A stretch of 28,751 nucleotides of DNA, taken from IMG/VR virus record IMGVR_UViG_2531839664_000032, one strand, 5' to 3'. Positions 14,969 through 20,900 of this stretch are shown here, in pieces (the first letter of the stretch is position 1; the number at the start of each line of letters is the position of its first letter). This DNA is from a virus (taxonomy: Duplodnaviria > Heunggongvirae > Uroviricota > Caudoviricetes). The position numbers are program-made.

Positions 14969-17900
14969 TGACATGAAGCCACGAAATTTTACGGCACAGC
15001 GGAATAACAAACAAATCATCAGCCTTTGTTCCCATCCCTCCCAGTCCATGACCAATGATGTGATGCGGATCATCTGCCTGATTACCGCACGTCATGCATT
15101 TCTGCGTTTTTACCCAGCGCGTGTATACAGGCATCTCTTCCCGTTGTGGTTTCTGGCGCTGGAGATACTGAGCCGGTGACTCCGGATCAACGGCAATGCT
15201 GACCACCGTCTTTTCCTGTGGCGGGTTTTGCTGGTGGGCGTGAGGCAGCGGCGCAAGATTTTTTGTGCGCTGCTTCAGTATGATGGTGGCGGTCTGCTCT
15301 CCCGGTACGATGTCGCTTTCACGGTACACTGAGCGGATTTTTTCCGCACGCAACCCCAGCGAACGACGTAATACCGCTTCCGGTAGCGCGTCCGCCACCT
15401 GATTGCGGACCGCCCACCAGGATAATTCAGCCAGAGATAATTCACGCTCCTGCGTACCGCTTATTGCGTGACCGATGACGTCAATCATCCATGCTGACAG
15501 GTTTTGATGAGCAAGTTGCTCGAGTGATTCGGATGTCTGGTCACGCAGCTGGTTGTCGCAGTGCCAGCACAACACCATTGCGCCGGTACCATAACGGTGA
15601 ATAACGGTTTCACTGTGATGATAGTCACCATGAGGCCACTGGCAGGATTTGACATGACGCAACAGCCAGTCAGACAGTGCACCAGCGCCACCAACAGCAC
15701 GAATCACACGCTCATTGCTGAAAAACGGCAGTAATGATTTATCCTCCGCCAGCGGCTGGCGAACGGCAGGGACGATGCCGGACGGCAGACCGCGCATGCT
15801 TTTCGGTTCCGGCTCCACAAGCACTCGAGGGTTATGGAATACCTGCATGGATTCACGGCCTGGTTTAAGGACCACCAACCCAAGTTCCGGTACCGGAACA
15901 GGTCGAAGTAATACCCGCACGTTACCTCCAGATGCGTTGCTGGAATGTGCGGGACGGACGCGGTGGGCGCTCGGAGTACGGCAGCCTGACGTAGATTATC
16001 CAGTGACGATAATCGAGGCTGAGGGCTTTCCTAAACTCATACCCACGTCTGCGGTAGTTCTGAATCAGCCATTCGGCCTGTTCTTCAGTGCATGGGGCGT
16101 GCCGGAACCAGTCAGATTTGAATGCATGAGAACGCCGCCCGTGCCTGCTGGCAAAGACGGCTGAATTATCAGAATTGTGTAGTCTGGAATTTTGCGCCAT
16201 CGGCTTTCTCCGGTGGCACAGTGTTACTCAACAGGGGTTCAGCCCTGCGCTGAATTGTAGATGAATTCACTAATCTTCAAAAGCAGAAAAACCAGCCTTA
16301 ATCCCAGCTTCTTTCAGAGACGGCAACGATGTGACAAATTCATTTGCACGCAAAATAAAACCATCCGTCACAAGCCCATCCACAAAATGAATTAACGCAG
16401 CTCCACTCTTCCTTTGTTGAGACTGTAAACATTTAATACGGCAGTGGCTGACAATAGCGCCCTTCTCAACGCGCACAGTATAGAGGCCATCTTCACTAAA
16501 AATTTCACGTAATTCTTCGATTCTCATCAACAGAATCCTTCCAGATAAATAGCACTCCCCTGTTCGGGGTCCATCCCTCTTCTCCCTACGCGCTACTTAA
16601 GTATTTTTGATTCTATTCCGGCGCCGTCCGGAACTTCAAACGCGTTGAAAATAAAAACAAAAACCCGCCGAAGCGGGTTAAGTGCGGGTGCGTTGAGGAT
16701 GCCTGACACATCAGAGGTGGCGAGGGATTTCTCCCCCGCCTGGTCTCTTACTCCTCAGGTTCGTAAGCTGTGAAGACAGCGACCTCCGTCTGGCCGGTTC
16801 GGATTCGTACCTCGCAGAGGTCTTTCCTCGTTACCAGTGCCGTCACTATGACGGTTAAACAGATGACGATCAGGGCGATTAACATCGCCTTTTGCTGCTT
16901 CATAGCCTGCTTCTCCTTGACCTTTCGGTCCGTAAGAGGCAATCTATATGTGACGAGCATATAGGGGCCTCACTTCGATTTATAGTCGGGTGGGGCTTTT
17001 ATCTATCTGCCGTTGGTGTTCATGCCCGAGGCAGATAGCCTCAAGCACCCGCAGCAATCCTACTTAACTCTGCCGTTACAGCAAACCGTTTTCGCCCGAT
17101 ATGGGAATTCCCATATCGGAATGAATTCAGTTCACCTGGCGAGGCTTAGCGTACAATTTTTTCCGTTTTGTGAGCTGCCCCTACATGCCGCTGGCGCGGC
17201 ATCCGGAAAAAGAATCCACGTCCTGAAGGACGAGGATGTCAAGTGCCTTTCCTGGTCCAGCCATATTTTTTGAATGCAGGCGCCGCTTCATCGGTTTGTA
17301 GCCATTCTGCAAATCGACGGGTTTCATCATTTGCATCCTGACGTACTGTAATGTTCATATCACGCCATATCACGTAGTCTGGCGCTATTTCCACGACATC
17401 ACCAATTTCTGGATTACTGGCTGCCCAGTCAGCCCAGGTTATCCAGACATCTGCTCCAGGCTGATTCTCAAGAGCCTTACGTGCAGTTCCGCTATTGGGC
17501 GCATATAAAATAATATTTTTTCGGATTGCGGCGACAGTTTCTATATTCCCTTTACGTCCGGCAATATCTTCCCAGACGCCAGTGCCTGATGTATTACTGG
17601 TACCACCACCATCATTAACAATTACGCCAATCCCAGGTCTGGTCAGGTCGTCAATACTCCGGATATTTTTAGGATTACCTTTCTTTACCAGTAAAATACT
17701 TTTTCGCAGATAAAGAGGCTGAATATCTTTTTCACTGAAGCTGTCTTTATGGTCCCGAATGATAGCCAGAGCAGATTGTTCTGATGCGCCAAACAAGATA
17801 TCTGCATTTTTTTTGGCATCTTCATTCCATTTGTTCTGTGGGCCGTAATGAACGTTCACTATAATACCTGTTTTTTCGGCATAAAGTTTGGCTGCATCAA

Positions 17901-20900
17901 GCAAGGCTGTATGCGGGCCACCAGGACCATACAGATTGATATCAGCATAAGCAGCAGAAGACAGGAATATTAAAAAACCTGCCATTATGTTCCTCATAAA
18001 AAACTCCTTTTATTGGTTATCATGAAATAAAGTTATAAACACTACAAATAATATATATTATATCCAGATAAACTTATCCGACTTTACCTCGTGCATAGCT
18101 TGTTATTTAAAGTTAACAAAATAAGGAAAATTATACGCATATTGAAGAGTATAAACCTTACATGTTGATTACATTTTTGTAATCAACATCCTGTTTGGAA
18201 TAGCCAGCCTTTAATGGATAACTATTTCTGACAATGCAATGAGTATAATCAAGTCCATCTTCCACTGAGAATTAGAGGCGGCATGCTTTTTCCGGCTCTT
18301 GCCGGATATCCGTAATTGTCCATAATCTGCAGATTTATACCTTCTGCATGACCTGTCAGCGAAAATTTGTCCGGTGTTTCTACGGGAATGACATCAAAAG
18401 TTACACGCACTCGCGTTACCGTGTAGACCTACTTTCCTGCACTTGCAAGATCACAGTGGTGTAACCGTAACAGGAATTTATTCTCTGGACCGGCAGTAAA
18501 TCCCTGAGTGGCGTGGTTCCCATATCAATTTCCCGCCAGGCAGCCTCCATTGCCAGCGTACAGGCTGGAGCCATGACCTGCCCTTTAAATCTGGCCCGAC
18601 CATCCCACCGGACGTGTTCTTCTCCCCTGAACTTAGGTACAGTCATCTCCAGTGGCACAAAAGTGTCAGCGCCATAATTTTTGACCGTTATCGCGCTACG
18701 GATATTTTGTTGACTGGTGAAAATCACCCCGCAGAATCAGGCTTATTCCCTTAACCCGGGCTTTCATCCTGACCGCCGCCTCACTACGACCAATCAGACT
18801 GCCGATGCATTTTACCTTCATTGTTAGTATCATGATTTCAGGCCTGCACCATCCGCTCATTGCCCGGACTTCCGACAAATCCCGGCAACCATATCCCGGT
18901 GCTTGTTCAGCTCCCGCAGCGCGGCGCAGACTCGCTCCCACTTCTGGACATGATTCTTCGCCCTACGCAGTTCGCGATTTGCCATATGCAGCGATGGCAA
19001 AATCAAATCATCTTCTCGCGTTGCAGTAAACGATGGCAGCGACTGCACAATGTCCGCCACAGTTTCTGTTTTAATATCTTCCTGTGTTGCATCTTTCTGT
19101 ACCGGTAACGCAACACCGGCTGGCTGAGGAAAGGCTTTACCATCGGTTTCCGCTACCGATTCAACTTTCGGCTCTGCTGGTAAATTATCACCTGGTATGC
19201 AGTAACGAATTTTACCGTTCTGGTTTACGCGAATCAGACGACCTTTGCTGATTGCCATTGCCAGCGTTGAAGCAACTTTGCGGGATGTTGTACCGAACAG
19301 CGTAGCCAGTTCATCCGCCGTTTGTGGTCCGCGTTGTTCAATCGTCGCGGTTAAATCGCACTCTGAGATTTTCGCTTCTGTTGCCGTGGTGGTTTCTTCT
19401 GGCGCTGGCTGTTCCTGCTGAACGTTGTTATCAGCCACACGCCAGGTGTATACGCTTTTATCAACGAAGCCAGCCTTTTTCAGTTCCCACAGCTCGTTCA
19501 GTACTTCTTCACGACTGATATCAAGTCGCGCAGCCAGCTCTACCGACGTGGCTTTTCCCATCGCTTTCAGTGCGTCAAAAACAGTCTCCATAAATTTCCT
19601 CCCGGTAAAAAATCACTTCTCAACTCAAACAAAACCAGCCGCTTTCCGGCGTTCATATTCCTGTTTCAGCAACTCAATTGGCGTTGGCCCCGACGGGCGT
19701 TTGGGGGCCGCCAGTTGTCGCCGGACTGGCGGAACGCTCAGGCCGTTACTAACATGCTTTGCCCATTTCGTCAGTTGCCGTTCTGCAAGCCGTTTTAATT
19801 CCCCTTCGGTCATCTGGCGCTCAATCCCCTTTGAACGCATCTCGAGGCAAATGTGATACAGCACAGGCTGAGACCACGGGTACTTATCACTTCCGTCGTA
19901 TCGCCAGGACTCATTGCGCCAGCGGCGGTACTCCTCCATCACAGCATCCACCGTCAGACCGAATGGATTGGCTCCGCTTTTCGAAATCAGTGCCACAAAC
20001 TCAGCCAGGTCCGGAGGCCATGTTTCACCCGCCCGGCAGCGGTCCATGCACTGGCGGCAGACCTGCCGGATTTGCTGCTCAGTCATCGCGCCAATCTGTG
20101 CAATCCAGAGCTTCGAAGGTGCGGCCCCGTTCTTCTGGGTCCAGCGGTTCGAATAAACCACCCCCATGAGTTCCCACAGCTTCCAGGCCGTTTCCGTCGC
20201 TGATAAATCCGTTTTCACGTTCCCACTGCTCACGTGCTGCCCGAATTTCCTGAACTGCCCGTGATGCGGTGCCACCTGGTGCTGCTGCATGGTTTACCCC
20301 TTTGCTGACTGGTTTAACCTGCGCCCTGACGTGATTTACGTGACGGGCGAATTTCTGCTCCCACTGAATCTGCGTAAACACTTTCCCCTCCGCTGCCCAG
20401 TAGTCCCGGAAGGCGGCAAGTTCAGCAGGTGTAAATTCTGTCTCCGGCAAAGCCATCCCCCACAACGCAGCCCGTCGTCGAAAATCCCGTGACGGATACC
20501 AGCTATCGCTCATCGGGAATTTTCCGATGGGTTCGCTCAGGCCATACAGGAATACAGGGGGGGCTGCCTGTAACGACAAAACTTCCTGCTCACTGGTCGG
20601 AGCACTCTCGCGTGCGTTATGTGTGGGGTTTAGATCTTTGGGTTCCTTTGGGTTCCGTGATCCGTTTTTGGGTGTCTTTGATGGAAAATTTGGGTGTCTT
20701 TGGTTATTTTCCATGCAGCTAAGAGTTCTGTTTTTGGGTCTGTTTTGTGCTGAAACATAACCATTTTCGGTACTGTTTTTATTAACAGCACCAATTTTAC
20801 CCACCTTTAAAGACTCCCGTTTTTGGGTGTATTCAGGCTCGGCAACACTTTCTTCTACACCGATAAGTCGGTACACCACAATTTGCTTTGTTCTGCCTTT

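Follow-up and report, generated by a model that had tools for sequence, protein, structure and literature searches.

The 28,751-nucleotide stretch of viral DNA (Caudoviricetes) held as IMG/VR record IMGVR_UViG_2531839664_000032, here called the window, raises the question of what a lone gene for a periplasmic-type binding protein is doing in a prophage, between the replication module and a hok gene. The original prediction regarded it as an orphan substrate-binding protein carried as prophage cargo, and suggested that it could be a colonisation factor or a moron that scavenges nutrients or metals. The present analysis confirmed that observation and upheld its interpretation. The "orphan binding protein" turns out to be encoded by paa (adfO), an E. 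coli gene associated with virulence that had been named and studied before; its identity is beyond doubt and not new, and the mechanism proposed below is tentative. Almost certainly, paa is known virulence-associated cargo of a lambdoid prophage of the O-island 57 (OI-57)/CP-933O type, located at ompW in Shiga-toxin-producing Escherichia coli positive for the locus of enterocyte effacement (LEE).

The open reading frame (ORF) is present exactly as had been claimed, at 17239..17997 on the minus strand; it is intact, begins with ATG and encodes 252 amino acids. Its identification as the paa (adfO) coding sequence (CDS) draws on the ORF itself, 100% DNA identity to annotated genes, the RefSeq annotation and a match to the Pfam family SBP_bac_11. 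A Shine-Dalgarno sequence, AAGGAG, lies 6 nt before the start codon (18004..18009, minus strand) and is kept in the plasmid-borne relatives of the locus. The exact Paa protein is RefSeq WP_001449026.1, "AcfC family adhesin Paa", identical copies of which are found under the Paa name on at least 1000 contigs. A 2.1-kb query around paa gave matches of 99.9–100% to many complete E. coli chromosomes, including those of O121:H19, O103, O26 and O111; DNA identity is 100% over the 2.1 kb in many O121, O103, O26, O111 and O157 chromosomes, with the CDS labelled "paa: AcfC family adhesin Paa". At a coverage of at least 80% this region occurs in 574 of 5,426 complete genomes, and an intact paa CDS is annotated in all 25 matches listed for the query, which contradicts the concern that the ORF could prove to be disrupted in a finished assembly. 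Records of PPompW phages match at 99.7–99.8% and carry the label "Paa/adherence factor AdfO". In the annotated E. coli chromosomes paa is flanked by hokD and a fimbrial pseudogene.

Positions 1,524,952–1,553,701 of E. coli O121:H19 RM8352 are identical to the window but for a single T that the window has in addition, at position 15259; this T falls in a DUF968 (ydfU-like) gene, which is marked by RefSeq as frameshifted in RM8352. The element is flanked by ompW and an ompW fragment, and its gene order is integrase ... dicB, cI/cro, P, DUF1627, fimbrial pseudogene, paa, hokD. It is a lambdoid prophage at ompW with paa beside hokD/ckf, the arrangement by which the OI-57/CP-933O type (PPompW) is recognised. 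The 30-kb ompW island of O121:H19 has been described as a homologue of O-island 57/CP-933O, with adfO(paa) and ckf(hok) listed among its genes (PMC9729726), and adfO (z2053) has been reported always to occur with ckf (z2054) (PMC8565820). The latter gene is the hok gene to which the original prediction had pointed beside paa. The island of O121:H19 also carries nleA, nleH1-2, nleF, espM1 and nleG. Paa/AdfO (Z2053) of porcine enteropathogenic E. coli (EPEC) and of enterohaemorrhagic E. coli (EHEC) O157:H7 (OI-57, CP-933O) is the same gene, in the same paa-hokD(ckf) arrangement at ompW; compared with OI-57 of O157:H7, the island studied here is a shorter (~30 kb), degraded O121:H19 version, with no other substantive difference. 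Since the gene, the pairing of paa with hok(ckf) and the island have all been described, the finding is already known, and as a discovery it has no importance, the island having been published; paa/adfO is used routinely as a marker in the virulence typing of EHEC, EPEC and enterotoxigenic E. coli (ETEC). A modest value remains in the mechanism and ligand of Paa, an adhesin versus a periplasmic sensor, and in the compact 1.0-kb mobile cassette with its sharply conserved upstream element.

The placement of paa between the replication module and hok was borne out: hokD lies 335 nt downstream of paa, and from 18857 on, upstream of paa, come the genes of the replication module (DUF1627, P, DnaT-like). 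The hokD (ckf) gene, for a type I toxin, is the next gene downstream of paa (16748..16903, minus strand; Pfam HOK_GEF, E 2.9e-23), and the sok antitoxin/hok regulatory RNA region occupies 16901..17050 on the same strand (Rfam RF01794, 103.9 bits against a gathering score of 59); the sequence remains homologous to that of other hokD loci as far as position 17079. In Qin of E. coli K-12, relE-relB is directly beside hokD, in agreement with the earlier remark that Qin carries relBE at this position. The slot next to hokD holds relBE, ydfV and flxA in K-12 Qin, a gene for an S-adenosylmethionine (SAM) methyltransferase and a SMEK-domain gene in a Qin-like prophage of strain SY3626, and a fimbrial remnant with paa here (~16900–18850). 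Qin-like prophages carry varying cargo in this slot between the replication/immunity module and hokD. The GC content, 50–56% in the prophage, falls to 26–41% across the paa cassette described below, with values of 40–47% in paa and 26% just upstream of it; this drop, together with the variable hokD-adjacent slot, upholds the description of the gene as prophage cargo.

What kind of protein is Paa? It matches the Pfam family SBP_bac_11 with E 5.5e-34 (118 bits against a cut-off of 25), and among sequences of crystal structures its residues 11–248 match PEB3 (3fjg, 2hxw) with E 1.2e-81 and AcfC (4jb7) with E 3.5e-81. In an alignment of 19 family members Paa is 53% identical to PEB3, 49% to AcfC, 87% to a homologue from E. 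albertii and 79% to one from Citrobacter; it keeps the family blocks YGPGGP, KGNPK, SNTSGTGVWED, NSG-ARK and DAWITW-DW, and the residues Y23, G24, G26, G27, P28, E143, D144, S169, W188 and W191 are invariant in 19/19 members. The conserved residues of the cleft motifs presumably contact the ligand, as in the PEB3 structures. Crystal structures at 49–53% identity span the whole mature protein, so that a predicted structure would add nothing.

PEB3 of Campylobacter jejuni (2hxw, 3fjg, 3fir) is 53% identical to Paa along the entire mature protein, with the motifs in common, and likewise has a signal peptide; it is chromosomally encoded, unlike the prophage-borne Paa. PEB3 is an N-glycoprotein, and Paa has no N at the position equivalent to DFNVS. 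AcfC of Vibrio cholerae (4jb7), encoded on VPI-1, belongs to the same family and is, like Paa, a horizontally acquired colonisation factor without a transporter. The acfC gene adjoins the chemoreceptor gene acfB, whereas paa lies beside no chemoreceptor gene and differs in its upstream region. Expression of acfC takes place in an operon with acfB under ToxR/ToxT control (PMC5976639).

The protein carries features of a Sec-type signal peptide, as had been predicted. Its N-terminus, MRNIMAGFLIFLSSAAYA followed by DINLYGPGG, combines a positively charged n-region, a hydrophobic core (Kyte-Doolittle 9-residue mean up to 2.8) and an A-Y-A cleavage motif; a lipobox cysteine was looked for in the N-terminus and none was found. 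Mature PEB3 in the crystal entry 2hxw starts at the residue aligned with residue 19 of Paa, and the junction ADxNxYGPGGP is kept across the family, Paa having the expected mature start (A/S)(D/E)-x-N-x-YGPGGP. Hydropathy, sequence and the PEB3 alignment thus place the predicted signal peptide at residues 1–18 (17944..17997, minus strand), with cleavage between A-Y-A and D.

Of the label "ModA/AcfC-like" one half stands: Paa is an AcfC-like, class II solute-binding protein, and its likeness to ModA and sulfate-binding proteins holds at the superfamily level only. It shares with ModA, Sbp and CysP the class II binding-protein superfamily with an anion-binding cleft, and gives weak local matches to them, but it fails all their curated models by a wide margin, namely those for ModA (TIGR01256, 18.3 bits against 62.5; NF002920, 17.7 against 470) and those for Sbp and CysP (TIGR00971, NF008022 and NF008106, 19–22.6 bits against cut-offs of 155–308). 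With scores of 18–23 bits against NCBIfam cut-offs of 62–470, membership of Paa in ModA, Sbp or CysP was ruled out.

These comparisons bear on whether Paa could be the high-affinity binding part of an uptake system for sulfate, molybdate or phosphoglycerate, with membrane parts encoded elsewhere in the chromosome, so that paa would be a scavenging moron with a housekeeping-type role. The class II solute-binding fold and the weak similarity to the Sbp, CysP and ModA models would fit such a role, as would the description of PEB3 as a transporter component for 3-phosphoglycerate-like metabolites (PMC12469816). We nevertheless consider it highly improbable, given the failed curated models, the movement of paa between prophages and plasmids as a single-gene cassette, and the neighbourhoods of the family. 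Around paa, in the prophage and its flanks, the annotation shows neither a permease gene nor an ATPase gene over ~16 kb in the direction of hokD and ~18.6 kb in the opposite direction, where oppF of an unrelated opp operon is the first to appear; in this range the claim that the gene is an orphan holds. In 33 related loci from other species no ABC importer genes are conserved beside the family member, and none of these loci has an ABC permease or importer-type ATPase gene next to it. The only ABC protein near these loci has the Pfam domains ABC_tran and ABC_tran_Xtn and no permease beside it; from this domain pair, as we read it, it looks like a soluble ABC-F-type ATPase and not an importer. 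The orphan state is a trait of the family.

The neighbours that relatives of Paa do have are of another kind. Close relatives (at least 50% identity) have no conserved neighbour, with the exception of V. cholerae acfC, which directly follows acfB, a gene for a chemoreceptor (methyl-accepting chemotaxis protein, MCP). In Vibrio and Endozoicomonas the relatives (46–49% identity) adjoin genes for a Lipoprotein_15 protein and an extracytoplasmic function (ECF) sigma factor; the gene that separates the homologue from the sigma factor gene encodes, in Endozoicomonas, a zf-HC2 zinc finger of the anti-sigma type, and the Vibrio gene in the same place gives no match to Pfam. The relatives from flavobacteria, Limnobacter and gammaproteobacteria adjoin a LysR gene and a gene for a YeiH-like membrane protein. 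The presence of distant AcfC/PEB3/Paa homologues near signalling and regulatory genes suggests a transporter-independent, possibly signalling branch of solute-binding proteins.

How, then, might Paa act in colonisation? The guess that the gene is a colonisation factor agrees with the literature on paa. Paa has been implicated in attaching-effacing (A/E) adhesion and in colonisation of the pig ileum, and in O157 the adfO (z2053) product, which resembles Paa, promotes adherence to HeLa cells, an adfO mutant adhering poorly (PMC8565820, summarising Batisson 2003 and Ho 2008, and reviewing the O-islands). A role in adhesion and colonisation, in the early steps of adhesion and in the formation of A/E lesions, is also reported in PMC11420993, and paa transcription in EDL933 is induced in bovine rumen and rectum contents (PMC8524897). 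PEB3, too, is called an adhesin, as well as a binding protein for metabolites that contain phosphate, and is needed for wild-type colonisation of chicks (PMC12469816). Once exported through Sec, Paa may bind an anion in its inter-lobe cleft, either a small molecule or a glycan that bears sulfate or phosphate; this binding would feed no ABC importer, and Paa would favour colonisation of the mucosa, whether as an exposed adhesin or as a sensor of the ligand in the periplasm. Two points weigh against its acting as an adhesin: direct adhesin activity has never been reconciled with the soluble periplasmic-binding-protein fold, and the V. cholerae homologue AcfC, a periplasmic protein that binds mucin and sulfated glycosaminoglycans, has an effect on chemotaxis and does not mediate cell adhesion (PMC5976639).

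In an alternative that concerns the mechanism only, Paa is not an adhesin at all. It would be, as has been proposed for AcfC, a periplasmic sensor of sulfated or phosphorylated anions of the host or microbiota that signals to a membrane partner such as a chemoreceptor, and the adhesion defects of mutants would be indirect. The properties of AcfC and the place of acfC directly after acfB fit this alternative, as does the location of relatives at 41–49% identity beside ECF sigma factor genes (with the anti-sigma-type zinc finger in Endozoicomonas) or LysR genes and not beside transporters. In the adfO mutant the secretion of other proteins is altered as well (PMC8565820), which suggests an indirect effect. 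On the other side, no signalling partner is encoded in the prophage, the relatives with at least 50% identity lack a conserved neighbour, and the published work on Paa assigns it a role in early adhesion and A/E lesions. A purely sensory Paa is a possibility that we hold to be less likely than not. Between the two modes of action in the proposed mechanism, the fold and the signalling-type neighbours of relatives make us lean, tentatively, towards a sensor over an adhesin.

How did paa come to lie in this slot? It sits in a self-contained mobile cassette shared by the prophage and plasmids. The cassette of ~1.0 kb (17179..18201, minus strand), which comprises the promoter region, the CDS and 3' hairpins, was delimited by blastn against ETEC-type plasmids, to which it is 86–89% identical: the shared segment covers 17179–18191 in pSTEC388_3 and 17179–18201 in pCFS3246-1, that is, the CDS with ~200 nt upstream and ~60 nt downstream. 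The downstream part contains two hairpins, both on the minus strand and both kept in the plasmid cassettes: a terminator-like one, CGTCCTTCAGGACG, 7 nt after the paa stop codon (17219..17232), and ATGCCGC-N4-GCGGCAT near the 3' end of the cassette (17185..17202). The ETEC-type plasmids with paa variants are of the IncF and IncI types, and one of them carries the gene beside sta1 and IS1. Common to the plasmid and prophage cassettes are the core of an upstream palindrome, a TATAAT hexamer, the Shine-Dalgarno sequence and the 3' hairpins; the plasmid cassettes differ, besides their sequence divergence, in their flanks (IS1, sta1, repA, yacAB), in the lack of a fimbrial remnant and in palindrome arms of 6–10 nt.

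The DNA upstream of paa in the prophage is a fimbrial pseudogene and not plain intergenic sequence, which the original prediction had missed. It occupies 18199..18691 on the minus strand, was recognised by DNA homology and RefSeq annotation ("fimbrial protein, frameshifted; internal stop") as a PapH-like minor-subunit gene with frameshifts and internal deletions, and gave no match when its separate fragments were scanned against Pfam. It is ~86% identical to the intact PapH-like second gene of complete P-like chaperone-usher operons elsewhere in E. coli, and the homology is lost ~35 nt before the natural stop codon would be reached, at the point where the paa cassette starts. A query with the fimbrial remnant matched O157:H7 and O111:H8 genomes at 99.8%. 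There are hints here that the cargo segment once included, or landed in, a fragment of a fimbrial operon. At the other border, a junction segment of 90–100 nt (17080–17178) separates the hok/sok locus from the 3' end of the cassette; it is found neither in other hokD loci nor in the plasmid paa cassettes. This junction segment contains at 17096–17119 a perfect, loopless palindrome of 24 bp, CCGATATGGGAATTCCCATATCGG.

At the 5' edge of the cassette lies the palindrome ATGTTGATTACA-tttt-TGTAATCAACAT, with perfect arms of 12 nt and a loop of 4 nt (18162..18189, no strand assigned). The original prediction had described it as a possible regulator binding site; the perfect arms are there, and the coordinates, given as 18163–18190, were one base off. 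In first-order Markov shuffles 0.013 perfect inverted repeats with arms of at least 12 nt and loops of up to 10 nt were expected per window, against 3 observed, far more than chance would give; in shuffles of the local sequence the expectation was 0.0012. As RNA it would form a hairpin with a centroid energy of −13.8 kcal/mol. The palindrome belongs to the paa cassette and not to the fimbrial remnant.

Nine cassettes were compared, the prophage version and eight plasmid versions whose upstream regions are ~75–80% identical to that of the window. The core of the palindrome, ATTACA-AAAA-TGTAATCAA, is kept in 9/9 lineages, and the outer left arm is not. Across 18165–18183, a stretch made up of the right arm, the loop and six inner bases from the left arm, column identity is 0.99–1.0, the highest of the non-coding region, compared with 0.89–0.93 in the region of the Shine-Dalgarno sequence and start codon. 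In seven of the nine lineages the left arm is different in its outer 6 nt, with no compensating changes in the right arm, and the homology between cassettes ends there; the full symmetry of 12 nt is specific to the prophage lineage, pSTEC388_3 having 10 nt. The conservation supports a functional cis-element in the case of the inner half and the right arm only. Also invariant in 9/9 cassettes is TATAAT at 18130..18135 (minus strand), 26 nt downstream of the palindrome, a candidate −10 element of the paa promoter. Transcription of paa would probably start from this hexamer, with the palindrome core just upstream as a promoter or operator element, a plausible role for the palindrome; if TATAAT is the promoter, the centre of the palindrome would lie near −52. 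Two considerations speak against this assignment: a scan for consensus promoters gave no complete sigma-70 match within the cassette and no recognisable −35 element, and the promoter and operator are inferred only from conservation among nine related cassettes.

Other identities were considered for the palindrome. It is not the 3' stem-loop or terminator of the fimbrial gene, given that the PapH-like homology ends at 18199 and that the palindrome travels with paa on plasmids without a fimbrial remnant. A reading as an intrinsic (rho-independent) terminator is not supported: it was not called as one in the scan, and, although its stem has 3 G-C pairs, neither strand reaches 5 T in 8 in the tail. 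As an operator of YdaT, the CII-like regulator of CP-933P (TTGATT-N6-AATCAA), it was rejected as well; its half-sites match, but their spacing, N10, is 4 bp longer, and it also occurs on plasmids. The likeness to the YdaT operator is probably coincidental. The sequence TTGATT-N6-AATCAA does not occur in the window, where the only TTGATT...AATCAA pair is the paa palindrome. In the cII position of the prophage, at 21091–21642 on the minus strand, a protein of 183 amino acids is encoded that scores 21.2 bits against the Pfam model YdaT_toxin (cut-off 21). Among searchable papers nothing relevant was found on the sequence of the palindrome, on the paa promoter or on H-NS at paa.

It is also conceivable that the palindrome is not a regulator site but a by-product of the cassette border, such as a recombination scar or a mobilisation hairpin, or an A/T-rich, UP-like promoter element. 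It is within the left arm, or just beyond it, that the cassette lineages cease to be homologous, the outer 6 nt of this arm vary without compensation, and in a region with 26% GC A/T-rich symmetry is commoner, even if the local shuffle expectation is still very low. The palindrome is also absent upstream of the chromosomal paa homologues of E. albertii and Citrobacter, as it is upstream of the homologues from Edwardsiella, Providencia, Aeromonas, Francisella and Vibrio. Against such an origin stand the position of the loop, right arm and inner left arm as the most conserved non-coding bases of the cassette, and the fixed distance between the core and the invariant TATAAT. We give this explanation a considerable chance of being right, a little short of even. 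The conserved upstream sequence offers a concrete starting point for work on the paa promoter and its regulator.

Taken jointly, the core ATTACA-AAAA-TGTAATCAA, ~50 nt upstream of the presumed transcription start, could serve as operator for a host regulator by which paa is controlled, whether the gene is carried by a prophage or by a plasmid, and Paa could belong to a transporter-independent signalling branch, linked to chemoreceptors or ECF anti-sigma factors, as a sensor of mucosal anions and not an adhesin. This combination is speculative, and we regard it as rather unlikely to hold in full.

Two further features of the prophage were noted away from the cargo slot. Between nleH1-2 and a tail-fibre remnant, at 7330–7360, there is a perfect hairpin with arms of 13 nt, ACAAAAACCGGAG-CCGGA-CTCCGGTTTTTGT, which resembles a bidirectional terminator. 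The degraded late region of the prophage gives, at 14489–14611 on the minus strand, a strong Rfam match to the Hfq-binding small RNA isrC (150 bits against a gathering score of 39).

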